From the NCBI GenBank assembly GCA_947496715.1, contig CANMDT010000002.1, positions 3,398 to 67,397 of the forward strand: 64,000 nt of DNA, given 5' to 3'. Shown here piece by piece: positions 1 to 46,071 of this stretch. Below the pieces are notes generated by a model. It ran no database searches. It saw only the letters and a list, made by a program, of their open reading frames with translations, and was not told where the DNA came from. The stretch's first letter is position 1, and each line of letters begins with the position of its first letter. The position numbers and the translations under genes are program-made. The DNA comes from Myxococcales bacterium. Lineage in GTDB: Bacteria > Myxococcota_A > Bradymonadia > REDH01.

Positions 1-1279
<1,279 letters not shown>

Positions 1280-1308
1280 CTGAACGCCCATCCCATCGAG
1301 AGTCCCCC

Positions 1309-2081
<773 letters not shown>

Positions 2082-2085
<4 letters not shown>

Positions 2086-3293: not shown

Positions 3294-3295
3294 TC

Positions 3296-3868
3296 ATGGG
3301 CTTCTACATTCACGTTCAGGAGACACCCAACCCCAACGCGGTGAAGTTCATCTCCTTCTACACCGTGAAGTCGCACGGGAAGAGCAACTACCGGAGCGCC
3401 GAAGAGGGCGAGCATGTGCCCGTGGCACGCGAGATCTTCGCGGTCGGCGGCGTCGAGCAGATCTACCTCTTCGACAACTACATCACGGTCACCAAGCGGA
3501 GCGACCTGCCCTGGGGCGAGCTCTCCAAGAGCATCCTCGACCTGCTCCAGATGGCGCTGCCTGTGCATGACCCCGACTTCACCGACCCCGAGCCGCCGGC
3601 CTCGGAGAACCAGGTCGAGAAGACCCCCGAGATCCTCGCCATCGAGGAGATCCTCGACCGCACCGTGAAGCCCTACCTTGCGGCAGACGGCGGCGGCATC
3701 GAGGTCATCGAGCGCCAGGGCGACAAGATCTTCATCAAGTATCAGGGCGCCTGCGGCACCTGCCCCAGCTCGGTGGGCGGCACCCTCATCGCCATCCGCG
3801 ACGTACTCCGCGACGAGCTCGGCCCCGACATCGAGGTCATCGAAGTGGGCGGCGCGATGTTCGGCTAG
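3296..3868 (+). CDS. nfuA: Nfu/NifU-like Fe-S cluster scaffold/carrier protein
   Basis: N-terminal Nfu_N-like segment plus C-terminal NifU domain with a CxxC motif (…YQGACGTCPSS…). Starts 2 bp after the sufD stop, so part of the suf operon. Confidence 0.78.
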   Translation: MGFYIHVQETPNPNAVKFISFYTVKSHGKSNYRSAEEGEHVPVAREIFAVGGVEQIYLFDNYITVTKRSDLPWGELSKSILDLLQMALPVHDPDFTDPEPPASENQVEKTPEILAIEEILDRTVKPYLAADGGGIEVIERQGDKIFIKYQGACGTCPSSVGGTLIAIRDVLRDELGPDIEVIEVGGAMFG

Positions 3869-4205
3869 TGAGCTGAGCAGACCTCCAAAACGGCGAAGGG
3901 CCGGTGAGCGTGCCCGTGGTGCCGTCAGTGCTGCTGTCGACCACCTTCACGAGGCGGTTGTTCGCCGTCTCCGTGGTGGTGGCGAAGAGCGTCGCGGTGT
4001 TGGCGGTACAGGAGCCCGAGAGGCCGCGCAGGCTCCGGCCGTTGGCAACGGTGCAGGCTCGGATGTCGGCCGCGTTATCCCGCGTCATCTGCATGACCAA
4101 CCCACCCGCCCCAGCCCCCATCTGCGCCTCTGCCTCGACAGCCCGACCGGCCCTGAGTAAGCCCGCACCTGCGCCAGGTCGGCGCCCGACAGACGGAGCA
4201 GGCAG

Positions 4206-4973
4206 ATGGAACGCAAGGGTCAGATCGCATTGGTGGTAGGTGGTGCTTCGGGTCTTGGCGCGGCAACGGTCCGCCGCCTCCATGCAGCCGGCGTCCAGGT
4301 CTTCATCGGTGACCGCAACGCAGAGGTGGGCAACGCCCTCGCCGCAGAGCTCGGCGAAGGCGCCTCGTTTGTGCCGGTGGATGTGACCGATGAGGCCAGC
4401 GTGAAGGCTGCCGTCGCCACCGCCGCCGCTGCCGGCCCGCTTCGCATCGCCGTCAACACCGCCGGTGTTGGCATGGCCGCCAAGCTCCTCGGACGCGACG
4501 GCTCGCCGCACGACCTCGGCGTTTTCGAGATGGTCATGAAGATCAACCTCTTCGGCACCTTCAACGTGCTCCGTTACGCGGCCGCCGCCATGGCCACCAA
4601 CGAGCAGCTCCCGAGCGGCGAGCGGGGCGTGGTCATCAACACCGCCTCCATCGCCGGGTACGACGGCCAGATCGGCCAGATCGCCTATGCCTCCTCCAAG
4701 GCCGGCGTCATCGGCATGACGCTGCCCGCTGCCCGCGACCTCATGAAGAACAACATCCGGGTGGTCACCATCGCCCCCGGCGTCTTCGACACCCCGCTGC
4801 TCGCCATGCTCCCCGCACCCGCCCGCGAGGCGCTCGAGGCCACGGTCCCCAACCCCAGCCGGCTCGGCAAGCCCGATGAGTATGCCAAGCTGGCCTGTGC
4901 CATCATCGACAACGGCTACCTCAACGGCGAGGTCATCCGCCTCGATGGCGCGCTCCGGATGCCGCCCCGCTGA
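4206..4973 (+). CDS. Short-chain dehydrogenase/reductase (3-hydroxyacyl-CoA dehydrogenase type-2-like SDR)
   Basis: N-terminal Rossmann motif [13 protein letters not shown] motif and catalytic YASSKAG (YxxxK). 255 aa. Confidence 0.85.
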
Positions 4974-5046
4974 AGCGGGCAGGCCGCGCGGGGCAAGCGG
5001 GAGGAGCGGCAGACAGAGGGCGGGTGAGGTCCTTCGCCCATTCCTG

Positions 5047-5269
5047 CCCCAACGGGGCAGAGCATACCAGTCCAGGGCAACGCCCTGGGGATCATGCGAC
5101 GCACATTTCCGGACTCTAACGGAACGCCGCAGATCATCGCATCACCCACCCGCGCCCGAACGATTCCCCGCGCCCGAACGATGCGGCGCTTCTTCAGAGC
5201 GCATCCACAACCTCCACCCATTTCCCAGGGTTGCACCCTGGGCTGGTATGCGTTGACCCTTTGGGTCAA
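5047..5269. mobile_element. MITE-like non-coding element, copy 1
   Basis: ~220 bp element with imperfect terminal inverted repeats: left ...gcataccagtccagggcaacgccctgggg, right cccagggttgcaccctgggctggtatgc. Small GC hairpins at both extremities: ccccaacgggg and ttgaccctttgggtcaa. Internal direct repeat ccgcgcccgaacgat x2. Near-identical copies at 5568-5814 and a partial copy at 14499-14578. Confidence 0.55.
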
Positions 5270-5308
5270 ATGGGAACGCGGTGCTCCTGGCTGCTCCACC
5301 TCGGCGCC

Positions 5309-5491
5309 GGCGCCTCCTTCGTGGCGTTCGATATGACCCACGAGGCCAGCGTGAAGACCAACGTCCCTAACCCCAGCCGGCTCGGCAAGCCCGATGAGTA
5401 TGCCCAGCTCGCCTGTGCCATCATCGAGAATGGCTACCTCAACGGCGAGGTCATCCGCGCAGGCGGCGCGCTCCGGATGCCGCCCCGCTGA
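5309..5491 (+). pseudogene. Internally deleted fragment of the upstream SDR gene. Codons ~60-72 are fused to the last ~43 codons including the stop.
   Basis: DNA and translation ([16 protein letters not shown]|[44 protein letters not shown]) match SDR gene segments 4357-4405 and 4843-4973. Same deletion junction as the copy at 14617-14798. Confidence 0.7.
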
Positions 5492-5567
5492 AGCTGGCCT
5501 GTGCGCGGGGCAAGCGGAGCAGATAGTCGCGGTAGGCAGAGGGCGAGTGAGGTCCGTGACCAATCCC

Positions 5568-5814
5568 TGCCCCAACGGGGCAGAGCATACCAGCCCAGGG
5601 CAACGCCCTGGGGATCATGCCACGCAAATTTCCGCATGCTATCGGAACGCCGCAGTTCGTCGCATCACCCTCCCGCGCCCGAACGATTCCCCGCGCCCGA
5701 ACGATGCGGCGCTCCTTCAGAGCGCATCCACACCCTCCATCCCATGCCCCGCGTGCATGCCCACCATTCCCAGGGTTGCACCCTGGGCTGGTATGCGTTG
5801 ACCCTTTGGGTCAA
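5568..5814. mobile_element. MITE-like element, copy 2 (contains a ~25-bp internal insertion relative to copy 1)
   Basis: Same terminal inverted repeats and terminal hairpins as copy 1. Preceded by the same ~70-bp spacer that follows the intact SDR gene. Confidence 0.55.
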
Positions 5815-5821
5815 ACGGATC

Positions 5822-5839
5822 GCAGCCCTGCAGGGCTGC
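5822..5839 (-). terminator. Perfect 18-nt GC-rich palindrome (gcagccctgcagggctgc), candidate terminator stem ~50 nt downstream of the giant gene stop
   Basis: Perfect inverted repeat seen directly in the sequence. On the minus strand the stem is followed by GAUCCGUUUG, a weak U tract. Could act bidirectionally. Confidence 0.35.
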
Positions 5840-5887
5840 GCTACCGATGGCCCGCTTACAAGGGTCAAGGGTTCACTGCACCGCCCT

Positions 5888-8800
5888 CTACGGCACGGTC
5901 CGCGCGAGGCGAAGGCCGAGGTTGCCGTAGCGAATGGTCGGCGCGCCAGAGTATCGACCCCCGGCACGCGCGTAGCGTGAGGGGTTGGACCACGACCCAC
6001 CGCGAAACGCCCGGGCGGAGCCTGTGCTGGCGCCGAGCGGGTCGGTCACCGTGCCAGGGTAGGTCACATTGTACCAGTCGCCCGTCCACTCCCACACATT
6101 GCCAAGCATGTCGAAGAGGCCAAAGCTGTTTGCAGTTTTGCCGCCAACCGTGCGCGACCGGTTTCCGCTGTTGATGCACCACCAGTCAATGCTTTCCAGA
6201 TTGGCCTGTGCTGTCGTGCAATCGGTAGTCGCACCGCTCAGGTTCCCCAGGTAGGTGGCCGTGGTTGTGCCGCCACGCGCCGCATACTCCCACTCGCTCT
6301 CGGTGGGCAGCCTGAAGCCCGTGCAGGTGAGGCCCGCGAAGGTGGCACCCGTGCAACCGCTGTGGATGCCATCCCTCCAGCCGTTGGCCGCGTCGGTGCA
6401 ACCTGTGAGCGTGTAGCAGGAGGCGTGCCCCTCTGCGGCGGACTTGGCGTTGGCAAAGGCCAAGGCTGCGTACCAATCCAGGTACTCCACAGGGCCGCTG
6501 TCGTTGGCGTTGGTGGTGGTCTGTACCGTGCCGGTGGTGGACTGGAAGAAGGAGGGGTTGGTGCCGCTGCTCAGCGCCTTCCACTGCCCCTGCGTCACCT
6601 CTGTCTGACCCATGAAGAAGCGACGAGAGATGGTCACGCTATGCTGCGTTTCGTCCGTGTAGCGGCCCACCTCGGTGGAGGGCGAACCCATGGTGAAGGT
6701 ACCGGCGGGGATGTAGTTCATGCCGATAGGCGCGCAGCGGTCGTTGGCCGTGCCCGTCGGGCCGGTGGCGCAGTTGCCGGAGGCACACTCGGTGTTGAGC
6801 GTGCAGGAGGTGCCTACGAATGAGCCAAAGGAGCATACCCCAACATTGACCTCGTACCCGCTCGCGCAGGCCGATGCGATGCAGCTGGCGTAGACGCTCC
6901 CCGTCCAGGTCTGCGTGCCGGCCGTCGTGTTGGCGGGCAGGGTCGAGCAGCTACGCGTGTTGCTCAGGCAGGCGCCGCCCTCCACATGGTAGGTCGCAGC
7001 GCACGTCGTCGCTGTGCAGCTGCCATAGACGCTGGTGCCGCTGTTCCACGTCTCAGTCGCCACTGTTGCGTTGGCGAGCGAGCAGCTCCGGGTGTCGCTC
7101 AGGCAGGCACCGCCCTCCACATGGTAGGAGGTGGCGCAGGTCGTCGCAGTGCAGCTCCCATAGGCGCTGGTGGCGCTGTTCCAGCTCTGGGTGCCAGCCG
7201 TCGTATTGGCAGGCATCGGAGAACAGGTGCGGGTGTCGCTCAGGCAGGCGCCGCCCTCCAGATGGTAGGAGGCAGCGCAGGCCGTAGCCTCGCAGCTGCG
7301 CCAGCCGGTCGCGTTGGCCGCCTCGACGGCCGCGGTCGCGTTCGCGGGCAACGCTGCGCAGCTACGCGTGACTGTCCTAGCGAGGCGCAGGCCGAGCGTG
7401 TTGACGCGGTTGCTCGGCGCGCCGCGGCTGCGAAACGCAGCGCGTTCTTGGTTTGCGCTGTAGAGCCACGCCCCACCGCGACGCAATCGCTCGGAGCCCG
7501 TCGAGGGACCCGTCGGGTCGGTCACCGTACCAGGGTAGGTGCCATACCAGTCGCCCGTCCACTCAAAGACGTTGCCCAGCATGTCGGAGAGGGCAAAGCT
7601 GTTCACAGCTTTAAGGCCCACCGCTTGGGTACGAGATCCACTGGTCTTGCACCACCAGGCGATGCCATCCAGATAGGTCTGTGATCTCGTGCAATTGGTA
7701 ACCGTACTGCTCAGGTTCCCCAGATAGGTGGCCGTGGCGGTACCGGCCCGCGCCGCACGCTCCCACTCGCTCTCGGTGGGCAGCCGGTAGCCCGTGCAGG
7801 TGAGGCCCGAGAAGGTGGCGCCTGAGCACCCGCTGTGGATACCGTCTTTCCAGCCGTTGGCTGCGTCGGTGCAGCCCGTGAGCGCGTAGCAGGCGGTGAG
7901 GCCCTCTGCCGCGGATCGGGCGTTGGCGAAGGCGGCTGCCGCATACCAGTCCATGTACTCCGCGGGGCCGCTGTCGTTGGCGTTGGCAGTGCTCTGTGTC
8001 CTGACGAGCGTAGACTGGAAGAAGGAGGGGTTGAGGCCGCCGGAGAGCGCCTTCCACTGCCCCTGCGTCACCTCTGTTTGATTCATGAAGTAGCTGCGAG
8101 AGAGGGTCACGCTGTGCTGCGTCTCGTCGGCAACGCGGCCTCGTTCCGTCGAAGGCGAACCCATGGTGAAGGTGCCGGCGGGGATGTAGTTCATGCCGGT
8201 CGGCGCGCACCGGTCGTTGGCCGTTCCCGTCGGGCCCGTGGCGCAGAAGCCCGAGGCGCACTGGGCGCTGAGCGTGCAGGCTGCGCCGAGGCTCCCAATG
8301 CAGGCGCCAGCGACAACGTTGTAACTGCTCGCACAGGTCGTCGCCGTGCAGCTCCCATAGGCGCTGCCCGTCCAGGTCTGGGTGCCGGCCGTCGTGTTGG
8401 CGGGCATGGGAGAGCAGGTGCGGGTGTCGCTCAGGCAGGCGCCGCCCTCCACATGGTAGGAGGTGGCGCAGGTCGTCGCGGTGCAGCTTCCATAGGCGCG
8501 GGTGGCGCTGTTCCACGTTTGCGTGGCGGCCGTCGTGTTGGCAGGCATCGGAGAACAGGTGCGGGTGTTGCTCAGGCAGGCACCACCCTCGAGGTGGTAG
8601 GAGGCCGCGCAGGCCGTGACCTCGCAGGCGCCCCAGCCAGTGGAATTGGCCGCCTCGACGGCAGTGGTCGCATTCGCAGGCAACACGGCGCAGCCGCGCG
8701 TGACAGTCCTCGCGAGGCGCAAGCCGACATCGCCGGTGCGGCCGCCTGGCGCACCATCGACGCGAAACGCAGCCCGCGCGTTGCTGGCGCTGTAGAAGTA

Positions 8801-11800
8801 TGACCCGCCGCGAGCCACCCGCCGGGTGCCCGTCGTGACGCCGAGCGGGTCGGTCACCGTGCCTGGGTAGGTGCCATTCCAGTCGCCCGTCCACTCCCAG
8901 ACATTGCCCAGCATGTCGGAGAGGCCAAAGCTGTTTGCCGTCTTGCCGCCTACCGCCTGCGTGCGACTTCCGGCGTTCTTGCACCACCAGGCGATGCCAT
9001 CCAGATTGGCCTGCGCAGTGGTGCATCCTGTGACAGTTCCGCTCAGGTTGCCAAGGTAGGTGGCGGTGGTCGTTCCGCCACGCGCCGCATACTCCCACTC
9101 GCTCTCGGTGGGCAGCCGGTAGCCCCTGCAGGTGAGGCCCGCGAAGCTGGCGGCCGTGCAGCCGGTGTGGATGCCGTCCTTCCAGCCGTTTGCTGCGTCG
9201 GTGCAGCCCGTCAGCGTGTAGCAGGCGGTGAGCCCCTCTGCCGCGGACTTGGCGTTGGCAAAAGCCAAGGCTGCGTACCAATCTAGGTACTCCGCAGGGC
9301 CGAGGTTGTTGGCGTTGCTGGTGGTGCAGGCTGTGCCCGTCGTTGACTGGAAGCAGGAGGAGTTTGTGCCCCCGGAGATCGCCTTCCACTGCCCCTGCGT
9401 CACCTCAGTCTGCCCCATGAAGAAGCTTCGGGTAAGCGTCACGCTGTGCTGCGTCTCGTTGATCGCTCGGCCCACCTCGGTGGAGGGCGAACCCATCGTG
9501 AAGGTGCCGGCGGGGATGTAGTTCATGCCGGTAGGTGCGCACCGGTCGTTCTCGGTTCCCGCTGGGCCGGTGGCACAGACACCGCTGGCGCACTCGGCGT
9601 TGGCGGTGCAGGAGGTGCCGACGGATGAGCCCAAGGAGCATACACCTAAGTTGACATCGTACCCGCTCGCGCAGGCGGTCGCCGTGCAGCTTCCATAGGC
9701 GATGCCCGTCCAGGTCTGGGTGCCGGACGTGGTGTTGGCGGGCAGGGGCGAGCAGCTCCGCGTGTCGCTGAGACAGGCGCCGCCCTCCACATGGTAGGTC
9801 GCATCGCAGGCCGTGGCGTTGCAGGTTCCGTAGCTGCTCGTGACGCTGTTCCAGCTCTGCGCGCTGGCCGTTGCATTGTCGGGCAGGGGTGTGCAGCTCA
9901 GGGTGTCGCTCAGGCAGGCGCCGTCCTCGACATGGTAGGTCGCAGCGCAGGTCGTGGCGTTGCAGCTCCCATAGGCGCTGGTGCCGCTGTTCCAGGTCTG
10001 CGTGCCGGCCGTCGTGTTGGCGGGCAGGGGCGAGCAGCTCCGGGTGTCGCTCAGGCAGGCGACGCCCTCCAGATGGTAGGAGGTGGCGCAGGTCGTCACC
10101 GTGCAGCTTCCATAGGCGCTGGTGGCGCTGTTCCACGCCTGGGTGGCCAATGTGGCGTTCGGGAGCGAGCAGTTCCGGGTATCGCTCAGGCAGGCGCCCC
10201 CCTCCAGATGGTAAGAGGCCGAACAGGCCGTAGCCTCGCAGGCGCCCCAATCGGTAGCGGTGGCCGCCTCGATGGCTGCGGTCGCATTCGCCGGCAACGC
10301 GGCGCAGCCGCGCGCGACGGTCCTCGAAAGGCGAAAGCCGAGCGTGTTGAAGCGATTGACCGGCGCGCCGTTGCCCCAGGCGCGAAACGCGGCCTTCTCC
10401 CCGGTGGCGATGTACTGCCACGACCCACCGCGATACACGCGGTAAACGCCCGTCGTGGCGCCGAGCGGATCGGTCACCGTGCCAGGGTAGGTGCCGTACC
10501 AGTCGGCCGTCCATTCCCAGAGATTGCCCAGCATGTCGTAGAGGCCAAAGCTGTTTGCCGTCTTGCCGCCTACCGCCTGCGTGCGACCGCCAGCGTTGAT
10601 GCACCACCAGGCGATGCCGGCCAGATTGGCCTGTGCCGTGGTGCAATTGGTAACCGTACCACTCAGGTTCCCACCGTAGGTTGCCGTCGCCGTACCGGCC
10701 CGCGCCGCATACTCCCACTCGCTCTCCGTGGGCAGCCGGTAGCCCGTGCAGGTGAGGCCCGAGAAGGTGGCCCCCGTGCACCCGCTGTGGATACCGTCTT
10801 TCCATCCGTTGGCTACGTCGGTGCAGCCCGCGAGCGTGTAGCAGGAGGCGAGCCCCTCTGCCGCGGAGCGGGCGTTGGCAAAGGCGACTGCCGCATACCA
10901 GTCCATGTTCTCCGCGGGGCCTGCATTGTTGGCGTTGGCAGTGCTCTGTGTCGTGACGGTCGTGGACTGGAACCAGGAGGGGTTGAGGCCGCCGGAGAGT
11001 GCCTTCCACTCCCCCTGCGTGACCTCTGTAAGATTCATGAAGAAGCTGCGCGAGATGGTCACGCTATGCTGCGTCTCGTCGGCAACGCGGCCTACCTCGG
11101 TTGCGGGCGACCCCATCGTGAACGTTTCGGCCGGGATAAAGTTCATGCCGGTAGGCGCGCAGCGGTCGTTGGCCGTACCCGCAGGGCCGGTGGCACAGAA
11201 GCCGGTGGCGCACTGGGCATTGGCCGTGCAGGAGTTGCCGATGATGGGTTGCAGGCCGCAGGCACCTGCGCTCAAGATGTAGCCGCTCGCGCAGGTCGTG
11301 GCCGTGCAGGCGCCATAGGCGCTGCCCGTCCACGTCTCGGTCGCGACTGACGCATTGGCGAGCGAGCAGTCGCGGCTGTTGCTCAGGCAGGCTCCCGACT
11401 CCACGTGGTAGCCCGAGTTACAAATCCCAGGGGTGCAGCTGCCGTAGCTGCTGGTATCGCTGTTCCATGTCTCCGTGGCTGTACCGTTGGCCAGCGTGCA
11501 GACCCGTACATTGGCCACGCAGGCGGCGCTCTCGAGGTGATAGGAGGCGGCACAGGCGGTCGCCGTGCAGCTGCCGTAGCTCTCTGTGTCGCTGTCCCAG
11601 CTCCGGGTTGCTGCGGTCGCGTTGGCGAGCGTGCAACTCAGCTCGTCGGCCTCGCAGCTGTCGACCGCGATGTGGTAGCCGTCGTTGCAGCTCTCAAGGG
11701 TGCAGATGCCGTTATAGGAGTTGCCGGTCCACTGCTCGGTGCCCTCGCCGTTGGCCAACAGGCAGCTCCGCGTGTCGCTTGTGCAGAGGCCACCCTCAAG

Positions 11801-14278
11801 GTGGACGCCGGTGCCGCAGGCGCAGGCATCGCTGCAGCTGTCTTCATTGTCTGTGTTTCCATCGTCGCAGACCTCGGAGGCATCGAGGATGCCGTCGCCG
11901 CAGATGTGGGTCGCGCCCGCCGCGATGGTGCAGGTCGCGCTGCAGACAGCGCAGGAGGCCGCGCCGTAGGCGCACTCCTCGGTCACCGTGTTGCCGTCGT
12001 CGCAGCCATCCACGCCCGCCTGCTCCACGCCGTCGCCGCAGGTGGCAATTGTGCAGACAGTGGTGCAGGCGTCGGTGGCGTCCAGGTTGCCATCATCGCA
12101 GGCCTCGCCGGCCTCCACTGCGCTGTTGCCGCAACCGGCTGCCACGCATGCCCCCGCGAGCAGGCTGTAACCCGCATCACAGCCCGTCGCCGCACAGGCG
12201 GTGTAGTCGCTGCCCGTCCAGCTCTGCGTTGCCGTCGTCGCATTCGCGACGGAGCAGCTCAGCGTGTCGCTGGCGCAGGCGCCCGCCTCCACATGGTAGG
12301 TGGCATCGCAGGCAGTCGCCGTGCAGGCGCCATAGGCGCCCCCGGTCCAGCTCTCGAAGGCTGCAGTAGCGTTCGCCGCCACGCAGCTGCGGGCGTTGCT
12401 GGTGCAGACGCCGCTCTCCACATGGTAGCCTGCCCCACAGAGGCAGCTGTTGGAGCAACTGTCGTCATTGTCTGTGTTGCCGTCGTCGCAGAACTCGGCT
12501 GCATCCAGGGTGCCGTCGCCGCAGAGGTCGGTCTCGCCCGCCGCGCTAACGCAGGTCGCATTGCAAATGGTGCAGGAGGCCGCGCCATAGTTGCACTCTT
12601 CGGTCAGCACATTCCCATCGTCGCAGCCCTCTACACCCGCCTGCACCAGGCCGTCGCCGCAGGCGGCCACCGCGCAGCTGGCCGTGCAGCCATCGGTCGC
12701 CACCAGGTTGCCGTCGTCGCAGGCCTCGCCAGCCTCCACCACGCTGTTGCCGCATCCGGCCGCAACGCAGGTTCCGTTGGAGAGGGTGAATGCACCGTAA
12801 CAGGCGCTGGCCACGCAGCTGTTCCAGCTGCTGCCGTTCCAAGTCTGGTCGCCCGCGCCGCCCGTCAGCAAGCAGCTCCGCGCGTCGCTCGCGCAGGCGC
12901 CGCTCTCTACATGGTAGCCCGTATCGCAGCTGCTGGGCGCGCAACTGCTCCAGGCCGAACCGAGCCAGGTCTGGCTCCCCGCGCCGTCGGCGAGGGTACA
13001 ACTCCGCGTGTCGAGCTCGCAGGCGCCGCTCTGCGCGTGGTAGCCGGCGTTGCAGCCCGTGAGGGAGCAGCTTCCCCAGGCACCGGCATTGTAGGTGCGG
13101 CTTCCCGTACCGTTCGCCACCGCGCAGGCGCCGGTGTTCGACACGCAGTCGCCACCCTCGAGGTGATGGGTGGGAAGGCAGCCCGACGCCGTGCAGGCGC
13201 CATACTCAGCGCCGGTCCATGTCTCCGTTGCGGCGGTAGCGTCGGCAGACGAGCAGGAGCGGGTGTCGCTCGCGCAGCTGCCGCTCTCCATGTGGTAGCC
13301 GCTGTTGCAGCTCACGATGGCACATGCCGCCCAGCTGCCCGCGGCGTAGCTCTGGCTGCCGATCCCGTTGGTGATGGAGCAGGCGCGCATGTCGCTCGCG
13401 CAGGCACCACTCTCCACATGTTCGCCGCTCGGGCAGCCACCGGGTGAGCAGAGGCCGGCCGTGCAGGCCAGGTCGGCGGCGCAGTCAGCCGTGGCCGCAC
13501 AGCTCTGCCCCTGGGTGCGGCAGCCGAGCGCTTCGTCGGTGGCGCCGTCGCAGTCGTTGTCGAGGCCGTCACAGAGCTCCGTCACGTTGGCCACAACGCG
13601 ACCGGTGAAGGTAAAGTTGCTGCCCGACCGGGCAAAGACCCAGTTGCGGACGCCGGCATTGGCGGGCGCAGACGAGGCTGGGCCTAGGTCGCCATAGGCC
13701 CAGGAGCCGAGGCCGCTCGAGGCACCAGGGATCACATCTCCGTTCTGCACGCCAAACCCTGTTGAGGGGACCAGCGCCTGGATCTGGGCAAAGACCTGCG
13801 TTTGCGGTGATGTGTAGAAGGAGCGGACCGTGACCGCGCCGCAGAAGAGGGGCGAGGCCAGATAGCCTTCGCATGCAGCGTCGAGCCCCGTGGTCCCCGT
13901 CACGAGCTCGAGCGAGTTGGCAGGCCCGGAGCCGGCCACACCGTCCTGCACGATGCTGAGGGTGCAGAGCCCCTGCGCCAGCCGACGGAGTCTCGGGTCG
14001 GACGAGGCCGCGGGATCGAGCTTCGTGAGGACCATCGCGCCATTGGCGGTTACGGTGCCGCGGAACTCCGCGAGCGTCAGCAGCCCAGACAGTGGCTCGG
14101 TAGCGGCCTCTGCAGAGGCGTCGCCCTGCCCGCCGTCTGGCAGCAGGATCGCCGCGTCGGGGATGAAGAGCCCACCATCGGGCGCCGTTGGCAGCGCGGC
14201 GGTAGGAGCCTCATCCTGAGCGCAGGCGCCGAGGAGGAGAGCAAAGGGCAGGAGGCGTGCAACAGAGCGCAGCAGCAT
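5888..14278 (-). CDS. Giant secreted lipoprotein (2796 aa). Four tandem FGE-sulfatase (SUMF1 / formylglycine-generating-enzyme family) domains are each preceded by Cys-rich ~35-aa repeats. N-terminal region carries Myxococcus-type cysteine-rich repeats.
   Basis: Signal peptide with lipobox LLGAC. Four copies of the FGE-family signature (…GYRLPTESEWEYAARGG… / …NSFGLxDMLGNVWEWTxDW… / …RGGSW…GFRL…). Many 'CxxGYHxExGACxSDTRSC' repeats. CGDGxxxxGxExCDDGN myxobacterial Cys-rich repeats. CDGLDNDCDGATDE motif. Confidence 0.85.
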   Translation of the reverse strand: MLLRSVARLLPFALLLGACAQDEAPTAALPTAPDGGLFIPDAAILLPDGGQGDASAEAATEPLSGLLTLAEFRGTVTANGAMVLTKLDPAASSDPRLRRLAQGLCTLSIVQDGVAGSGPANSLELVTGTTGLDAACEGYLASPLFCGAVTVRSFYTSPQTQVFAQIQALVPSTGFGVQNGDVIPGASSGLGSWAYGDLGPASSAPANAGVRNWVFARSGSNFTFTGRVVANVTELCDGLDNDCDGATDEALGCRTQGQSCAATADCAADLACTAGLCSPGGCPSGEHVESGACASDMRACSITNGIGSQSYAAGSWAACAIVSCNSGYHMESGSCASDTRSCSSADATAATETWTGAEYGACTASGCLPTHHLEGGDCVSNTGACAVANGTGSRTYNAGAWGSCSLTGCNAGYHAQSGACELDTRSCTLADGAGSQTWLGSAWSSCAPSSCDTGYHVESGACASDARSCLLTGGAGDQTWNGSSWNSCVASACYGAFTLSNGTCVAAGCGNSVVEAGEACDDGNLVATDGCTASCAVAACGDGLVQAGVEGCDDGNVLTEECNYGAASCTICNATCVSAAGETDLCGDGTLDAAEFCDDGNTDNDDSCSNSCLCGAGYHVESGVCTSNARSCVAANATAAFESWTGGAYGACTATACDATYHVEAGACASDTLSCSVANATTATQSWTGSDYTACAATGCDAGYSLLAGACVAAGCGNSAVEAGEACDDGNLDATDACTTVCTIATCGDGVEQAGVDGCDDGNTVTEECAYGAASCAVCSATCTIAAGATHICGDGILDASEVCDDGNTDNEDSCSDACACGTGVHLEGGLCTSDTRSCLLANGEGTEQWTGNSYNGICTLESCNDGYHIAVDSCEADELSCTLANATAATRSWDSDTESYGSCTATACAASYHLESAACVANVRVCTLANGTATETWNSDTSSYGSCTPGICNSGYHVESGACLSNSRDCSLANASVATETWTGSAYGACTATTCASGYILSAGACGLQPIIGNSCTANAQCATGFCATGPAGTANDRCAPTGMNFIPAETFTMGSPATEVGRVADETQHSVTISRSFFMNLTEVTQGEWKALSGGLNPSWFQSTTVTTQSTANANNAGPAENMDWYAAVAFANARSAAEGLASCYTLAGCTDVANGWKDGIHSGCTGATFSGLTCTGYRLPTESEWEYAARAGTATATYGGNLSGTVTNCTTAQANLAGIAWWCINAGGRTQAVGGKTANSFGLYDMLGNLWEWTADWYGTYPGTVTDPLGATTGVYRVYRGGSWQYIATGEKAAFRAWGNGAPVNRFNTLGFRLSRTVARGCAALPANATAAIEAATATDWGACEATACSASYHLEGGACLSDTRNCSLPNATLATQAWNSATSAYGSCTVTTCATSYHLEGVACLSDTRSCSPLPANTTAGTQTWNSGTSAYGSCNATTCAATYHVEDGACLSDTLSCTPLPDNATASAQSWNSVTSSYGTCNATACDATYHVEGGACLSDTRSCSPLPANTTSGTQTWTGIAYGSCTATACASGYDVNLGVCSLGSSVGTSCTANAECASGVCATGPAGTENDRCAPTGMNYIPAGTFTMGSPSTEVGRAINETQHSVTLTRSFFMGQTEVTQGQWKAISGGTNSSCFQSTTGTACTTSNANNLGPAEYLDWYAALAFANAKSAAEGLTACYTLTGCTDAANGWKDGIHTGCTAASFAGLTCRGYRLPTESEWEYAARGGTTTATYLGNLSGTVTGCTTAQANLDGIAWWCKNAGSRTQAVGGKTANSFGLSDMLGNVWEWTGDWNGTYPGTVTDPLGVTTGTRRVARGGSYFYSASNARAAFRVDGAPGGRTGDVGLRLARTVTRGCAVLPANATTAVEAANSTGWGACEVTACAASYHLEGGACLSNTRTCSPMPANTTAATQTWNSATRAYGSCTATTCATSYHVEGGACLSDTRTCSPMPANTTAGTQTWTGSAYGSCTATTCASSYNVVAGACIGSLGAACTLSAQCASGFCATGPTGTANDRCAPTGMNYIPAGTFTMGSPSTERGRVADETQHSVTLSRSYFMNQTEVTQGQWKALSGGLNPSFFQSTLVRTQSTANANDSGPAEYMDWYAAAAFANARSAAEGLTACYALTGCTDAANGWKDGIHSGCSGATFSGLTCTGYRLPTESEWERAARAGTATATYLGNLSSTVTNCTRSQTYLDGIAWWCKTSGSRTQAVGLKAVNSFALSDMLGNVFEWTGDWYGTYPGTVTDPTGPSTGSERLRRGGAWLYSANQERAAFRSRGAPSNRVNTLGLRLARTVTRSCAALPANATAAVEAANATGWRSCEATACAASYHLEGGACLSDTRTCSPMPANTTAGTQSWNSATSAYGSCTATTCATSYHVEGGACLSDTRSCSLANATVATETWNSGTSVYGSCTATTCAATYHVEGGACLSNTRSCSTLPANTTAGTQTWTGSVYASCIASACASGYEVNVGVCSFGSFVGTSCTLNTECASGNCATGPTGTANDRCAPIGMNYIPAGTFTMGSPSTEVGRYTDETQHSVTISRRFFMGQTEVTQGQWKALSSGTNPSFFQSTTGTVQTTTNANDSGPVEYLDWYAALAFANAKSAAEGHASCYTLTGCTDAANGWRDGIHSGCTGATFAGLTCTGFRLPTESEWEYAARGGTTTATYLGNLSGATTDCTTAQANLESIDWWCINSGNRSRTVGGKTANSFGLFDMLGNVWEWTGDWYNVTYPGTVTDPLGASTGSARAFRGGSWSNPSRYARAGGRYSGAPTIRYGNLGLRLARTVP
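5900..11400. repeat. Four imperfect tandem DNA repeats (~1.4-1.6 kb each) inside the giant gene, one per FGE-domain module
   Basis: Alternative-frame minus-strand ORFs beginning at ~6584, ~7950, ~9389 and ~11009 give near-identical translations (MEG…QPLLLPVH.RH.T.H.QRQ…). This shows nucleotide-level periodicity. The protein has four FGE modules. Confidence 0.75.
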
Positions 14279-14284
14279 GGGAGA

Positions 14285-14495
14285 TCTTCCAGAGGCATGG
14301 TCCTAGCGCGCGAGCGAAAGCCAGATTGTAAATGAGGATTGGCTTACAAACGTAACCGAAAGGTCATACGGAATCAAAAAAGGAGCGCCGAGATAGTTTG
14401 ATCGTCCGCAGTCTCGAATCAGATAAAATCTAGAATGACTCTCGAAATGTGTGTTCGAAAATCTAACAAATGTATGTAATTTTCCATTCTATCGT
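14285..14495 (-). promoter_or_regulatory. AT-rich island (GC far below the ~70% background), presumed promoter/leader of the giant gene. Contains inverted repeat TTGTAAatgaggattggcTTACAA (14326-14349).
   Basis: Lies directly upstream of the minus-strand start at 14278. The compositional contrast is visible by eye (…gtaaatgaggattggcttacaaacgtaaccgaaaggtcatacggaatcaaaaaagg…). Confidence 0.45.
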
Positions 14496-14498
14496 GGC

Positions 14499-14578
14499 TC
14501 CTTCAGAGCGCATCCATACCCAACATCCCATTCCCAGGGTTGCACCCCGGGCTGGTAGGCGTTGACCCTTTGGGTCAA
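14499..14578. mobile_element. MITE-like element, copy 3 (right-hand ~80 bp only; left part missing at the junction with the AT-rich island)
   Basis: …cttcagagcgcatcca…cccagggttgcaccccgggctggtaggcgttgaccctttgggtcaa matches the right half and right inverted repeat of copies 1 and 2. Confidence 0.5.
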
Positions 14579-14616
14579 ACGGGACCCGGCGCTCTTCGCA
14601 GCTCAGCCTAGGCGAC

Positions 14617-14798
14617 GGCGCCTCCTTCGTGGCAGTCGATGTGACCGACGAGGCCCGCATGAAAACCACCGTCCCCAACCCCAGCCGGCTCGGCAAGCCC
14701 GATGAGTATGCCCAGCTGGCCTGTGCCATCATCGACAACGGCTACCTCAACGGCGAGGTCATCCGCCTCGATGGCGCGCTCCGGATGCCGCCGCGGTA
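14617..14798 (+). pseudogene. Second copy of the internally deleted SDR gene fragment
   Basis: [17 protein letters not shown]|[43 protein letters not shown] shows the same internal deletion junction as 5309-5491. Confidence 0.7.
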
Positions 14799-14858
14799 GG
14801 GCAACGCGTACCGCAGTTCTTGCGAACCGCCGAGTTCGACAGGTAAACTGCGGGCGCC

Positions 14859-17800
14859 ATGACGACCCCTGTACATTTTGGACCCTTTCTGGTGCGCGAG
14901 CGGATCGGTGTAGGCGGCTTCGGCGAAATCTACCGCGCGGTGCATCAGGAGGCTGGCCTCGAAGTGGCGATCAAGGTTGTGACTGCGGAAGTAGCGCGTC
15001 ATCCATCATATCTGAATGATTTTCGTAGGGAAGTTCGTGCCGTGGCCGGGCTGGACCACCCGAATATCGTTCAGGTCTTTGACTACGGCACCATCCCTTC
15101 GAAGGCCGCCGCTGCACTCCCAAGACTGGTCGCTGGTAGCCCCTATCTCGTGATGGAGCTCGCTTCGGGTTCCGTAGCCGACCTGCCGATGCCAATGGCA
15201 TGGCAGACCTGCAGGATGCTCCTCCACGACCTGCTCTCTGCGCTCGGCCATGCCCATTCGAGGGGACTGGTTCACCGAGACATCAAGCCTGGAAACACGC
15301 TACTCGTCGATGGACGCGAAGGACGCATCGTCAGGCTCTCTGACTTTGGCATCGCCCAGAACTGGGGAGTCAAGGATGGCGGCGTTGAGCTGGACGCTGC
15401 GGTAGGCACCCCGTTTTACATGGCTCCGGAGCAGTTCGCCGCGCGCTGGCGCGACTTCGGCCCCTGGACCGACCTTTATCAGGTCGGAATCTTCGCCTTC
15501 GAGATGGCCTTTGGAGTGTACCCCTTTCAAGCTGACACCTTCATGGGTTTCGGGCTGCAGCACCTTCGCGCACCGCTGCCGCGCATGCCGGTTCCCGCCG
15601 GCTACCCGGCAGGTTTTGGTGACTGGCTCCAGACGATGTGCGCGAAGGAGACCCGAAGGCGCTTCGCCTCTGCGGCAGAAGCTGGTTGGGCGCTCGCAGC
15701 ACTGGAGGACATGGGGCGGCCCGAGCCAGACGCGGAAGGCCGCGGGCGCACGGAGTTTGGCGTGTTTCGCAGGAGACGCGCAGACTTGGGTGCCTTCGAG
15801 GCGACACTGGGAGGTAGGATCGACGGCGGCGGCCAAACGCTGATGTTCGATCCGTCACTCACCGACAGCCTTGCAGATCATCCTGTCCAACAGGAACCGA
15901 CGACCCATGGGATTCCGTGGCAGCCGGCGCCGATCGAGGGGCAGACGGGAAGCGCGGGCGCCCGTCTCGGCAGCGTCGGTGCGGGACTCTTCGGGCTGCG
16001 AACCATCCCCATTGTGGGTCGAGAGGCAATTCAACAGCAGTTGTGGGCGGCGCTGCGGAAGCGACACCTCAAGCGAGAGCCTGCCGCGGCGCTGCTTGGA
16101 GGCAGCGCGGGCGTTGGCAAGAGCAGACTCGCAGCGTGGCTCACCGACTCTGCCACGGAGCTGGGATTGGCATCATCCGTGGTCATCCGGAGCGGTCCCG
16201 AAGAGGGCAGCGGCCTGCTGGGCCGGACCGTGGCCGAACGCTACCGCTGCAATGGGTTGAAGCGGCTGGAGGCACGGCTTCGTTTGGAGCAAGTGCTCGC
16301 GGAAGAGGGTGTTACGGATCGTGCAGAGGTTGAGGGTCTGGTTGCTCTCGTGAGCGAGGGCCTTGCGGGAGTCGAACCGCCAGAAAGCAGCGCACGAACC
16401 ATCAGGTTCGGTAGCCCGCTCGAACGACAGGCGGTCTTTGAACAGCTGCTGAGACGAGCCGCTGCGCGACAGCCGGTTCTGGTCTGGCTGGATGATGCCC
16501 ACTTCGGCGGAGAAGCACTCGCAGCCATGGTTTCCATTGCGCGTCAGGCACGAGACCTTCCCCTGCTCACCCTGGTCACCTTCCGCGAAGACCTGCTCGA
16601 AGACCGACCGGTTGAACGGGCGCTGCTCGAGGAGCTGGCAGCGCACTCCGCGAGCACGACCATCATCGTGCCGCCTCTGGATGAAGAGGCGCAACATGAG
16701 CTGGTCGCTCGGATGCTGGGGCTGAGTGGAGCGCTGGCGGCGAGTATCCGAATGCGTGCAGCTGGCAACCCCCTGTTCGCGGTGCAGCTTGTCGGCGATC
16801 TCATCGCGCGAGGCGAGCTTGTTGGCAGGCCAGGCGGCTTCTCGCTGCGAACCGGGATAACGCTCCGACTCCCGAACGATGTTCGTTCACTTTGGCTCGG
16901 CCGCATCGAGCAGGTCGTGTCGGAATCGGGACCCGATGTGAAGGTTGCGCTGGAGCTTGCGGCCCTGCTCGGTGTCAGTGTCGACGGTCAGGCGTTCGCA
17001 GAGCTGAGCCGGCGTGTGGGGCTGATCGACGGTTCAGCGCTTCTGGGCTCGGTCGCGGGCACCGGTCTGATCGAACAGACCTCGGTCGGTTGGCGCCTCG
17101 CGCACCCGCTCCTGCGGGACACTCTCGAGCGCGAGGCGCGGACCCGGATCGACTGGATGGACTGGAACCACGCCTGCGCGGAGGCGCTCACTACCATCTA
17201 CGATCGGGGCATGCGTGGCCTATCCGCGCGGCGGGCAGGCTACCTCGCCGAGGCCCTTGCGTGGGACGAGGCACTAGAGGCGATCACAGAGGCCGTAGCA
17301 GAGGCACTTCACGCGGGTGAGACACTACCCATCCCGGAGCTGCTCGACCGGCAATCCGAGATTTTGGACGCGCTCCGAGTGCCGAGCTGTGATCCTCGTC
17401 GGGCAGAGGCGCTGTTGACGCGGGCAGAGGCCTACCGGCTGCAGTGGAACTTCGGTGCAGCGGCAGAGTGGGCTGACCTTGCGCTGGCGGCGGCAGACCG
17501 CGCAAGCAGCCCCCGGCTGCGGGGCGAAGCCTACCTTTGTCGAATGCACATCGCACGCCAGCAGGGTGACAGCGGGCAGGCAGAGGTTCTTGCCACGGAG
17601 GCGCTGACGACCTTCCGCACCTTGGACGACGGCCGCGGCCTCGGACGCACCTATCTCGGCTTGGCCATTCTGCTCCGGACGCAGGGCCGTATCACGGAGG
17701 CCTTGGGAAACTACGAGCGCGCCCTGGCAGAGTTTGTCGAGATTGGTGACGAAGTGAGCGCGGCGCGCTGCCGGCTCGGGGTGGCCCACCTGCATCGCGG

Positions 17801-18401: not shown

Positions 18402-18470
18402 GGAGAAAGCTTGGCCACGCAGCGAACCGGCGTGCTAGAACCCCTCCAACAGGCTCTGCAGGTGAGGACG

Positions 18471-20558: not shown

Positions 20559-20565
20559 GAGCTGC

Positions 20566-45973: not shown

Positions 45974-46071
45974 TCCGTCCTCCAGTCGGCCTCGTAGGGG
46001 TTCGTGTAGGGCGCGGTTTTGCCGCGGCGGCGGCGGCGCTGTCAAGCCTCAGGTGGCGGGGGCGTTCGACG

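Follow-up and report, generated by a model that had tools for sequence, protein, structure and literature searches.

A giant-gene cassette that is present or exactly absent next to an SDR gene in a freshwater Myxococcota/Bradymonadia-like bacterium is bounded by a duplication of the SDR 3' end

Within a 64-kb window (the whole 64,000-nucleotide stretch of DNA analysed here) from an uncultured freshwater Myxococcota/Bradymonadia-like bacterium, a block of 9826 nt (9.8 kb; positions 4840-14665 or, equivalently, 4974-14798) is present or exactly absent among strains, and the population carries both allele states. This indel has as its edges two direct copies of 127-134 nt from the 3' end of a short-chain dehydrogenase (SDR) gene, 4840-4966 being equal to 14666-14792, rather than the ends of the MITE-like elements inside the block, which points to homologous recombination rather than transposition. 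The accessory-cassette polymorphism is real and recent, and its mechanism is ordinary. The first-pass annotation of the window had read the giant gene in the block, G2, as an accessory insertion with a clean footprint, and the exact filled and empty pair bears this out.

Upstream of the cassette, on the minus strand at 3903..4079, lies what is left of a second giant gene, G1 (RCC1_2 and DUF4215), a C-terminal relic with 78.5% nucleotide identity to positions 2372-2548 of contig L015. Its translation aligns with the G1 C-terminus (e.g. ...ATLFATTTETANNRLVKVVDSS...), and in the sister clade G1 is positioned between NifU and the SDR. The intact SDR gene (4206..4973, plus strand; 255 aa, 3-hydroxyacyl-CoA dehydrogenase-like; PF00106, 146 bits) ends in the left copy of the bounding direct repeat (4840..4973, plus strand; 97.7% identical to 14666-14795). 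It is followed by a first repeat doublet, consisting of a left-arm module u1 (5040..5151, plus strand; hairpins H1-H2-H3; covariance model R1, 80.0 bits, E 1.6e-17) and a right-arm module u2 (5162..5273, minus strand; R1, 94.8 bits); with its ends set from related genomes, the full element spans approximately 5020-5309. SDR fragment 1 (about 5300..5491, plus strand) leads into the second doublet, formed by u3 (left arm, 5563..5674, plus strand; R1, 86.5 bits) and u4 (right arm, 5685..5818, minus strand; R1, 88.9 bits), the spacer of u4 carrying a 22-nt insertion. About 70 nt separate the end of u4 from the stop codon of G2 (5888..14278, minus strand; 2796 aa; PF03781 with 533 bits in 4 stretches, and PF13948). 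Beyond G2 are an AT-rich island (14279..14498; GC 0.44 and 0.38 in its core versus 0.68 for the window), a single module u5 (14471..14582, minus strand; hairpins within 14498-14578) and SDR fragment 2 (about 14608..14798, plus strand), which combines an old 5' piece with a 3' piece at 14671-14798 and is the right copy of the bounding repeat. The right flank (14799..18401, plus strand) comprises the original SDR-kinase spacer of 59-60 nt and a Ser/Thr kinase-AAA-TPR gene assigned by Pfam. The SDR gene, both fragments, the repeat copies, the giant gene and the AT-rich island had all been placed nearly base-exactly by the first reading.

In the empty alleles (contigs L227, L229 and L230), the SDR gene is followed by 59 nt and the kinase gene; window sequence up to 4966 is joined to that from 14666 onward, so that the right flank directly adjoins the SDR. 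Both flanks of these contigs are 98.4-99.9% identical to those of the filled contigs (L223-L226 and L228), with an identical kinase protein. A more distant relative, L222, whose kinase protein is 86% identical, is likewise empty. None of the four empty contigs contains repeat modules, SDR fragments or the giant gene, and the empty-site contigs align to both copies of the duplicated SDR 3' end. In the filled allele, the SDR open reading frame remains intact and the insert sits between the SDR body and the original last ~43 codons of the SDR. From left to right, it begins with a new SDR terminus; two stretches of spacer and doublet follow, separated by SDR fragment 1, and lead to the minus-strand gene G2 with its AT-rich upstream region, to the single module and, last, to the 5' piece of fragment 2. 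Since the empty alleles lack both the array and the giant gene and differ by one indel, the two were gained or lost together at this site. An empty site had been predicted and does exist; it was expected to read SDR, MITE array, kinase, whereas the observed site holds neither array nor fragments. The footprint had also been called dated, which holds loosely: filled and empty flanks differ by 0.1-1.6%, making the polymorphism recent, but the repeats inside the block are old (85-88% identity).

An assembly chimera was ruled out, as both junctions are spanned in several independent assemblies. Three of these (ERZ27280213, ERZ27280329 and ERZ27280245) align from 4859 across the cassette to beyond the kinase at 99.4-99.97% identity, and the ERZ27280213 contig (L001) extends over the entire SDR gene and its upstream neighbours. 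In ERZ27280234, both junctions are covered on two separate contigs, L002 and L226. A search of metagenome contigs with the kinase as query returned only distant kinases (at most 41% identity) and no syntenic loci. The surroundings of an SDR relative with 80% identity (P0002) are unrelated and uninformative for the locus.

The two SDR fragments carry much of the history of the block. Each fuses SDR nucleotides 4350-4406 in frame to SDR nucleotides 4840-4973; in local alignments of fragment 1, this corresponds to codons ~49-67 joined to codons 212-255, correcting an earlier estimate of codons ~60-72 for the 5' piece. The junction reads GTGAAG followed by ACCAACGTC in fragment 1 and ATGAAA followed by ACCACCGTC in fragment 2, and the same junction occurs in the relative L021 as GTGAAG followed by ACCACCGTC. 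Both window fragments have derived bases in common relative to the junction expected from the SDR sequence. The alignment thus upholds the claim that they share one internal deletion breakpoint, and because the junction is identical, both fragments descend from a single event. Their ends have different affinities. In fragment 1, the 5' piece is 82.5% identical to the SDR and the 3' piece 92.6% identical to the empty-allele SDR. In fragment 2, the 5' piece is about 80% identical to the SDR, while its 3' piece has 0 mismatches over 128 nt to the 3' end and stop context of the empty-allele SDR; the sole mismatch of the 3' segment to L230 is position 14670. Such a step in identity is expected if a crossover took place at that point. 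Two SDR termini can also be distinguished. Terminus T1, formed by the filled SDR end and spacer (…CCGCCCCGCTGA AGCGGGC…), matches fragment 1 and the SDRs of the sister clade. Terminus T2, that of fragment 2 (…CCGCCGCGGTAG GGCAACGCG), is exactly the one with which the functional SDR of the empty alleles ends. The SDRs of the outgroup L014 and of L222 end in T2 as well, which there directly adjoins the gene downstream, so the adjacency of SDR(T2) and its neighbour is primary in any case. The arrangement NifU-SDR-59 nt-kinase is ancestral in the clade of the window, and we infer that the event itself was a gain; deletion between the 130-nt repeats would lead to the same empty allele, possibly independently in L222.

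Related genomes offer a plausible source. In two sister-clade contigs, L020 and L021, the SDR is followed by spacer, doublet and extra modules; L021 continues with a fragment bearing the same junction and then PrmC, and the L020 contig ends within the array. In L017, the SDR and a doublet are followed by the 3' flank of a G2-like gene. The left edge of the insert resembles the native sequence downstream of the SDR in the sister clade. The block is probably a recent accessory acquisition, built in the sister lineage and brought in by homologous recombination via its SDR fragment. Assembly would have occurred where the SDR natively carries this terminus and is followed by this spacer and repeat array, an SDR fragment lying next to PrmC. 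Entry would then have proceeded by RecA-type homologous recombination, with the left crossover in the SDR and the right crossover between the SDR-3' homology of the fragment and the recipient's own SDR 3' end, the fragment serving as the right homology arm. The route could have been a double crossover with linear DNA, or a circle that had been excised between the two fragments and integrated in Campbell fashion. The same SDR repeat would permit precise loss, and ordinary allelic exchange could spread either state.

Several features constrain the donor. None of the sampled sister-clade contigs spans G2, fragment and PrmC, so the donor arrangement is pieced together from the partial contigs L017 and L021. 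Identity between the insert and the sampled sister-clade copies is only 77-90% for the repeats and spacer, and the actual donor is therefore not among the sampled genomes. Since the filled SDR has no sister-clade SNPs upstream of 4887, the donor tract in the SDR was very short or the donor was a closer relative. The composition of G2 is native-like (GC 0.677, GC3 0.836, RSCU r 0.935), which argues for a close relative rather than a foreign source. It is tempting, if doubtful, to go further and regard the SDR fragment as a working "portable homology arm" of a giant-gene cassette bounded by REPIN-like modules rather than as debris. Such a cassette might, on an equally speculative footing, integrate at a gene end while sparing the gene, excise as a circle, and retarget via another captured gene end. 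A parallel in the Erken MAG contig L038, from a related species, suggests this reading: there, the modules upstream of the G2 ortholog are followed by the 3' fragment of a different gene, a homolog of window 36446-37360, of which the same MAG holds an intact copy elsewhere (L078).

G2, the single gene of the block, combines Cys-rich repeats (DUF4215, MopE-like) with four FGE-sulfatase (SUMF1-type) domains arranged in tandem modules of ~1.3-1.6 kb. Its N-terminus carries a putative lipoprotein-type signal (…LLLGAC) as judged by eye, and a 1860-aa allele, P0256, is missing the last two modules. The AT-rich island, confirmed at 14279-14498, presumably holds the G2 promoter and 5' region, although a consensus scan of the island returned no sigma-70 consensus; the segment 14220-14330 is conserved beside the repeat unit in the related MAGs L027 and L088. 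Open reading frames and Pfam matches inside the block revealed only FGE-sulfatase and DUF4215 domains and no integrase, recombinase or transposase. A genomic island inserted by site-specific recombination would be expected to have an integrase or recombinase gene and short terminal att repeats, whereas this block holds G2 alone and its bounding repeat is 127-134 nt of coding sequence. The FGE-sulfatase domains prompted a reading of G2 as a DGR target, which was dropped because no RT was found among the 15 window proteins scanned and G2 is near-invariant, differing at only 3 positions between two assemblies. A general link between modules and FGE-sulfatase genes was also rejected: clear homologs near modules occur in four loci only, three from close-relative MAGs (L038, L066 and L082) and one from a Myxococcales MAG (L044), with weak partial matches in two Verrucomicrobiota loci (L047 and L086).

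The elements first described as MITE-like (5047-5269 and 5568-5814) are 88% identical and have imperfect terminal inverted repeats of 45-48 nt that are 75-78% complementary. Each is an inverted doublet of ~95-nt three-hairpin modules in the order H1 - GCATACCAG - H2 - spacer - H3 - CGCAT. The third copy (14499-14578) is 88% identical to the right arm; it had been described as left-truncated, and its left arm is indeed absent, but the remainder is one complete module (R1 positions 1-112, 78.4 bits). What appears to be a linker after the right arm (5270-5309 and 14579-14614) is part of the repeat element and is conserved with it in related genomes, the extension 14579-14614 being present in L027, L057, L066, L082 and L110. 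A 28-nt repeat probe occurs 3 times against 0 expected by chance, and all 5 modules that the covariance model R1 detects in the window lie inside the block. Covariation supports the three hairpins: 95% of cells are paired, with 124 double-change cells versus 36.5 in shuffles (0/500), and slid controls reach at most 52.7% paired. In the consensus of 87 units, neither a GTAG nor a CGTC tag adjoins any of the hairpins. Scans for consensus promoter-like or terminator-like sites were negative for the repeats, their surroundings and the AT-rich island, leaving a terminator role of the modules unsupported, and wobble pairs show no clear strand bias. In this locus, the modules appear to act as dispersed homology and substrates for rearrangement, not as the agent that moved the cassette.

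Beyond this locus, the repeat is a genuine dispersed element, as had been supposed. The module core is present in more than 117 genome stretches from many phyla, its 28-nt core is identical across at least 8 phyla, doublets are found in many phyla, and individual MAGs hold several module-bearing contigs (at least 14 in JBEIJP01). Among 117 loci with units, 12 have modules adjoined by an IS200-like Y1 transposase gene (PF01797, 89.8 bits); these 12 come from Verrucomicrobiota, Lentisphaerota, Chlorobiota and Desulfobacteraceae. The gene is flanked by doublets in L077, L083 and L084 and lies inside a doublet in L104 and L112. Its protein matches PF01797 and NF033573, and its closest solved relatives are ISDra2-type TnpA (E about 3e-4). 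By virtue of this association elsewhere, the modules are better termed REPIN-like than MITE-like. A cognate Y1 transposase was not found in the window or in the fetched contigs of close relatives. The repeat matched nothing among phage records and a single plasmid, Thiodictyon pTs485, in which two doublets flank an integrase and IS91 transposase pair. IS91 was rejected as the cognate transposase, as neither pTs485 protein is near units in the 117 loci, the window or its relatives. At gathering thresholds, Rfam has no match in the window; in E-value mode, the H2+H1 part of u2 matches RF01687 (Acido-Lenti-1) at 5224-5268 with 27.9 bits against a gathering score of 37. This alignment covers model positions 1-46, and the covariation of H1 and H2 is supported. 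In other genomes, homologous units reach 37.1-40.3 bits and thus exceed that threshold. Acido-Lenti-1 was originally described from Acidobacteria and Lentisphaerae (Weinberg et al. 2010, PMC2864571), and the present data suggest that it is the hairpin signal of a Y1-transposase-associated repeat family, not a small RNA.

Other histories of the block can be weighed against entry from the sister lineage. The first-pass annotation had proposed that a tandem array of MITE and fragment pre-existed downstream of the SDR and that the giant gene with its promoter was inserted into it or mobilised with it. Later insertion into a standing array is rather unlikely. It would account for the sister-clade arrays without a giant gene, which were found in that clade only, between SDR and PrmC (L020 and L021), for the G2-like 3' flank directly after the first doublet in L017, and for the recurrence of the fragment-spacer-doublet unit with a 523-nt period. 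The empty alleles of this lineage, however, have no array whatever at the site, and the module junctions of L021 resemble deletion scars at an 11-nt microhomology (GCGGYGCTCCT), so that L021 may be a derivative that lost G2. Moreover, the unit adjoins a G2-like 5' region in the related MAGs L027, L038 and L088, suggesting that gene and flanking units travel together. Of the original proposal, joint mobilisation survives in the form of the single indel, and insertion into a pre-existing array does not hold here. It is also unlikely that the filled state is ancestral to the clade, with the empty L227, L229 and L230 and, independently, L222 as precise deletions. This would require at least two independent identical deletions, and it fits poorly with a fragment 2 whose 3' piece is undecayed while its 5' piece is ~20% diverged, or with the T2 terminus shared by L014 and L222. 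In its favour, deletion proceeds readily between direct repeats that are 127-134 nt long and 98% identical, and its product would be the one observed, and the filled and empty alleles have one private SNP each in the SDR 3' half (4887 and 4760, respectively).

The repeats themselves invite two further explanations. Movement of the cassette by their own transposase, whether through Y1/HUH "peel and paste" or as a MITE-type composite with u4 and u5 as ends, is extremely improbable, even though these modules flank G2 and its promoter in the same orientation (5685-5818 and 14471-14582, both minus), the family is tied to IS200-like Y1 transposases elsewhere, and G2-like genes adjoin units in several related MAGs. 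The boundaries between filled and empty states fall in the SDR repeat and not at module ends, neither the window nor the loci of its relatives encodes such a transposase, and an 8.7-kb single-stranded intermediate would be unusually large for IS200/IS605 transposases. Alternatively, the modules could be genes for trans-acting small RNAs of the Acido-Lenti-1 type with a regulatory role around the giant gene. The RF01687 matches and the strong covariation in three hairpins speak for such a role, as does the rating of the motif as a probable RNA (Weinberg et al. 2010, PMC2864571). It is nonetheless very unlikely for elements found in either orientation, arranged as inverted doublets or as tandem arrays of 49 nt, present in many copies per genome and even within a coding region (L138), with Y1 transposase genes adjoining copies in 12 loci, no clear strand bias and no promoter-like or terminator-like signals found.

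The filled and empty alleles document, base for base, the states before and after an uncultured bacterium gained or lost a giant surface-protein gene. They also indicate how a fragment of a neighbouring gene can guide insertion while keeping that gene intact. The repeat family is a more interesting by-product than the cassette mechanism. If Acido-Lenti-1, catalogued since 2010 as a candidate small RNA, is a Y1-associated repeat, annotations of the motif should change, and the family would make a good model for the movement of REPIN-like elements from phylum to phylum and for their part in seeding genome rearrangements.

The closest parallel to the modules is provided by REP/REPIN sequences and their REP-associated Y1 tyrosine transposases (RAYTs), together termed a "REPtron", with a TIR-flanked variant termed "TIRtron/TIRYT" (Di Nocera et al. 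2013, PMC3733652). Shared features are hairpin repeat units with compensatory stem changes, inverted doublets as the commonest form, many copies per genome that lie mostly between genes, no obvious target-site duplication and, in the other genomes named above, a small IS200-like Y1 (HUH) gene flanked by or inside doublets. Unlike the single 20-40-nt palindrome of a REP, the present unit has ~95 nt and three hairpins and is without the GTAG/CGTC tag; its 28-nt core is identical in at least 8 phyla while REPs are usually species-specific, and no transposase was found in the window or close relatives. Acido-Lenti-1 (RF01687) resembles the module in its two hairpins, conserved linker (…GCUGGUAUGC…) and multi-copy nature, and Acidobacteria and Lentisphaerae are both among the phyla found here. 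Window copies score below its threshold, however, and the third hairpin, conserved tail, inverted doublets and Y1 link of the present element favour a DNA-level mobile repeat over a small RNA gene. Classical MITEs have similar terminal inverted repeats (45-48 nt) and small size (~230-290 nt here), but no direct repeats are visible by eye at the doublet flanks, and the only associated transposase is Y1 rather than DDE. With IS200/IS605 elements and PATEs, the family shares the PF01797/NF033573 protein and hairpin-rich ends; its arms are symmetrical and inverted instead of forming distinct left and right ends, and a single transposase gene is flanked by whole doublets.

At the level of the cassette, a circle that carries a gene fragment and integrates by a single, Campbell-type crossover produces the topology of an insertion-duplication construct. 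The filled allele likewise presents an intact gene, an insert and a partial duplicate, with precise reversion by recombination between the duplicates, although a linear double crossover yields the same product here. In Neisseria, minimal mobile elements occupy sites between conserved genes as cassettes, often with Correia repeats at their borders, and are swapped by homologous recombination. The present cassette is similar in having no mobility genes, conserved flanks, alternative states including an empty one, and small bordering repeats, and it may similarly spread by flanking homology. It differs in carrying one boundary homology internally, as a piece of the flanking gene, an arrangement that results in a 130-nt duplication and leaves the gene intact.

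The SDR (short-chain dehydrogenase) gene and the giant gene G2 lie in a window of ~68% GC. Exact matches to its proteins identify the window as a contig assembled from a metagenome (ENA samples ERZ272802xx). The arrangement described in the first-pass annotation, namely an intact SDR gene, repeat elements, two SDR fragments with the same junction, a giant gene and an AT-rich island, is borne out at its coordinates with two small corrections. The intact SDR gene (4206-4973, plus strand) encodes 255 aa and matches PF00106 at 146 bits. Downstream are two repeat elements (5047-5269 and 5568-5814), each preceded by a related spacer, that possess imperfect inverted ends of 45-48 nt and are 88% identical to one another; SDR fragment 1 (5300-5491) follows the first. 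G2 occupies 5888-14278 on the minus strand, and upstream of its start are an AT-rich island (14279-14498, GC 0.44), an 80-nt copy of the element's right arm (14499-14578) and SDR fragment 2 (14608-14798). Sixty nt past fragment 2, a Ser/Thr kinase-AAA-TPR gene begins (14859-18401). No integrase or transposase is present within the block. In both fragments, SDR nt 4350-4406 run in frame into the last 44 codons of the gene (nt 4840-4973), and the junctions are identical down to the same derived bases; the junction also recurs in a fragment of a relative, L021. While the shared deletion junction had been recognized correctly, the 5' piece corresponds to codons ~49-67 rather than ~60-72.

The G2 open reading frame specifies 2796 aa with four FGE-sulfatase domains and DUF4215/MopE-type Cys-rich repeats, and its N-terminus (MLLRSVARLLPFALLLGAC…) looks by eye like a lipoprotein-like signal. 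Four tandem modules of ~1.3-1.6 kb each make up G2, with a mutual identity of 76-87%. Since an allele of 1860 aa from another sample (P0256) is 97% identical over its length and is missing the last two FGE modules, the number of G2 modules varies in the population. A comparison of G2 with its neighbours, as had been proposed, revealed a native-like composition (GC 0.677, GC3 0.836, RSCU r 0.935) that fits a closely related donor. More large genes, with right-handed beta-helix domains, occur at 43394-48906 and 20566-24423, and the rest of the window also holds several ORFs of 1300-1500 aa without a Pfam match; giant proteins, probably exposed at the surface, abound in this region.

With the kinase protein as a query, further contigs were found in which the locus is either filled or empty. 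Where they overlap the window, the filled contigs, from five ENA assemblies (L223-L226, L228), match it at 99.4-99.97% identity; L223-L225 start at the SDR 3' end, span the cassette and extend past the kinase, and L226 and L228 begin within G2. Three empty contigs (L227, L229, L230) have the order SufBD-NifU-SDR-59 nt-kinase and a kinase protein identical to that of the window. They align to window positions 1-4966 and then from 14666 onward at 98.4-99.9% identity. Since a 127-nt overlap in these contigs fits both 4840-4966 and 14666-14792, the indel measures 9826 nt, and the SDR 3' end, duplicated in direct orientation, bounds it on both sides. A more distant empty contig, L222 (kinase 86% identical in aa), reads NifU-SDR-kinase-715 aa-1281 aa(-)-PrmC. 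No repeat modules were detected when every empty contig was searched with a covariance model of the repeat. The empty site had been expected to read SDR-MITE array-kinase; a site free of the giant gene does exist in L227, L229 and L230, but the array is not part of it. The array, the fragments and G2 were gained or lost as a single piece.

Two types of sequence context, T1 and T2, surround the SDR stop codon. T2 (…CCGCCGCGGTAG GGCAACGCG…) is identical in the empty alleles and fragment 2, and a diverged form of it precedes the kinase in L222 and PrmC in the outgroup L014. T1 (…CCGCCCCGCTGA AGCGGGC… plus a spacer) is found in the full-length SDR of the window, in fragment 1 and in the SDRs of a sister clade, which was found via an SDR variant (P0122) with ~94% nt identity to the window SDR. 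In the sister-clade contigs L017, L020, L021 and L024, the same spacer and a repeat doublet natively follow T1. The two halves of fragment 2 also differ, the 5' piece being only ~80% identical to SDR whereas the 3' piece (14671-14798) matches the end of the functional SDR in the empty allele without a mismatch. Taken together, the terminus types and these unequal halves suggest insertion by homologous recombination. The primary state would be a T2-type SDR adjacent to the kinase. The block would have been assembled in a lineage resembling the sister clade and may have entered the window's lineage via homologous recombination, with the right crossover joining the old fragment to the 3' end of the recipient's SDR, within 42 nt that are identical in both copies (4845-4886 = 14671-14712). 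The same product would come from a linear double crossover or, if a circle had first been excised between the two fragments, from its Campbell-type integration. Alternatively, the empty contigs could have arisen by deletion between the SDR direct repeats, a process that yields exactly the empty allele; however, since the site is empty in L222 as well and fragment 2 shows no decay in its 3' piece, deletion is the less likely explanation and insertion, judging from these sequences, the more likely origin of the difference between filled and empty alleles.

The cassette is a real accessory insertion, recent and cleanly bounded, and to this extent the original interpretation stands, as does the idea that the cassette moved together with its array. 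Its insertion into a resident array does not stand, and in place of transposition by MITEs, homologous recombination at the duplicated end of a gene is the probable route. The repeats were also considered as the agent of this indel and rejected, as its boundaries fall in the SDR repeat and not at module ends. As an event, the insertion is of a known kind and of moderate interest.

The window's SDR groups with others in a cluster of 80 sequences at 90% identity. In the sister clade, the gene order is SufBD-NifU-G1(-)-SDR-[0.6-1.1 kb variable]-PrmC. G1, present upstream of SDR in the sister clade and L014, is a giant gene unlike G2 that encodes 2431 aa with RCC1_2 and DUF4215 domains; the two are ~70% identical in nt over the N-terminal and Cys-rich parts and differ in their C-terminal domain arrays. 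The window retains a relic of the G1 C-terminus (3903-4079, minus strand, ~60 codons) and the rest of G1 is absent, with about 7.3 kb of the G1 region lost in the window's clade between NifU and SDR. The interval from SDR to PrmC (window 24587) is 19.5 kb longer in the window than in the sister clade, an excess consisting of the block and a kinase-715 aa-1285 aa segment (14859-24423) whose 1285-aa protein is a beta-helix. This segment is missing from the sister clade and L014, where PrmC follows SDR within 0.06-1.1 kb, and its GC3 is 0.70-0.73 versus 0.83-0.93 in adjoining genes. It resembles an older insertion into the junction where the block lies. The SDR neighbourhood is a hotspot, with G1 deleted in the window's clade, the kinase segment present or absent, and G2 polymorphic downstream. 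Within the SDR gene itself, a cluster of seven SNPs (4430-4469) sets the window apart from most near-identical contigs, both filled and empty. Two of the seven also occur in one filled contig, L002, and at several of these positions the window has the sister-clade base; a short tract of recombination could explain the cluster, as could a consensus of mixed strains.

The more novel by-product is the repeat family: its three-hairpin element, apparently REPIN-like, is spread across phyla, coincides in part with an 'sRNA' motif already in the catalogues and is linked to a Y1 transposase. An alignment of 87 copies defines a module of ~95 nt comprising H1, GCATACCAG, H2, a ~20-nt spacer, H3 (GCGTTC-TGAAG-GAACGC) and a CGCAT tail. 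Covariation backs all three stems: 95% of cells are paired versus at most 52.7% in slid controls, and 124 double-change cells were observed versus 36.5 in shuffles (0 of 500). By covariance model, the 64 kb contain exactly five modules, all within the block, arranged as two inverted doublets, 5040-5151(+)/5162-5273(-) and 5563-5674(+)/5685-5818(-), and a single complete module, 14471-14582(-). The last of these had been read as a truncated third copy; it is a whole module, and the 'linker' adjoining it is a conserved extension of the repeat element. When one genome per species was searched with the arm core GCATACCAGYCCAGGG-N5-CCCTGGG, more than 117 stretches matched, a lower bound. Among the matches listed, the core occurs in MAGs or genomes of Acidobacteriota, Verrucomicrobiota, Planctomycetota, Lentisphaerota, Myxococcota/Bradymonadia, Chlorobiota, Desulfobacterota and beta/gamma-Proteobacteria, usually on several contigs of each. 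In Bradymonadia-like MAGs, the H1-H2 part also forms tandem arrays without H3 at a period of 49-59 nt (L057 988-1207; L066 2801-3010; L082 588-748).

Modules again adjoin G2-like genes in related MAGs. In the ErkenSummer_bin-2361 MAG, contig L038 carries a G2 ortholog (80.7% nt identity) and, upstream of it at 5850-6260, two modules followed by a short 3' fragment of a homolog of window gene 36446-37360. The same MAG has this homolog intact, with a module before it, on a different contig (L078, 230-1483). The L038 layout parallels the modules and SDR fragments of the window, and because of this parallel one may entertain, as an unlikely idea, that a host-gene 3' fragment acts as a 'portable homology arm'. 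In another MAG, Ki3-D3_bin-0810, a module lies in the N-terminal, Pro-rich region of an ortholog of the same window gene (L138, 1037-1209) and is missing at the corresponding window positions 36498-36547. This is a second-locus presence/absence polymorphism of the repeat, possibly inside coding sequence. On the Thiodictyon syntrophicum plasmid pTs485 (L234, 400997-409042), two complete doublets, each side with about 30 nt of identical flank, bracket an integrase and IS91-family transposase pair. A large gene of the SUMF1/FGE family ends 31 nt before the first doublet, with another of this kind nearby.

A gene for a 150-aa IS200-like Y1 (HUH) transposase adjoins a doublet, at a distance of 18-250 nt, in 12 of the 117 loci listed (L029, L046, L051, L074, L077, L079, L083, L084, L098, L104, L112, L120). 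The protein matches PF01797 at 89.8 bits and NF033573 at 68 bits with a clear HVH…Y motif. In L077, L083 and L084 the gene has doublets on both sides, and in L104 and L112 it sits within a doublet. The hosts are Verrucomicrobiota, Lentisphaerota, Chlorobiota and Desulfobacteraceae; no Y1 transposase was found in the window or in contigs of close relatives. H2, linker and H1, read on the opposite strand, are the Rfam family RF01687 (Acido-Lenti-1), a motif that a 2010 study (PMC2864571) described from Acidobacteria and Lentisphaerae and took to be probably an sRNA, its function unknown. Against a threshold of 37 bits, the copies in the window score 27.9 bits and those elsewhere reach 37.1-40.3 bits. 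The Y1 genes beside or inside doublets suggest that what Rfam lists as Acido-Lenti-1 'RNA' is instead the hairpin signal, at the DNA level, of a system akin to the REPtron. The REPtron/TIRtron layout is known for REP elements and RAYT/TIRYT transposases (PMC3733652), and the present loci show it, with a Y1 gene flanked by, or within, doublets. The unit itself is unusual in its three hairpins; it lacks a GTAG tag, and its core is conserved from phylum to phylum. From these sequence features, we conclude that the repeats of the block appear to be REPIN-like.
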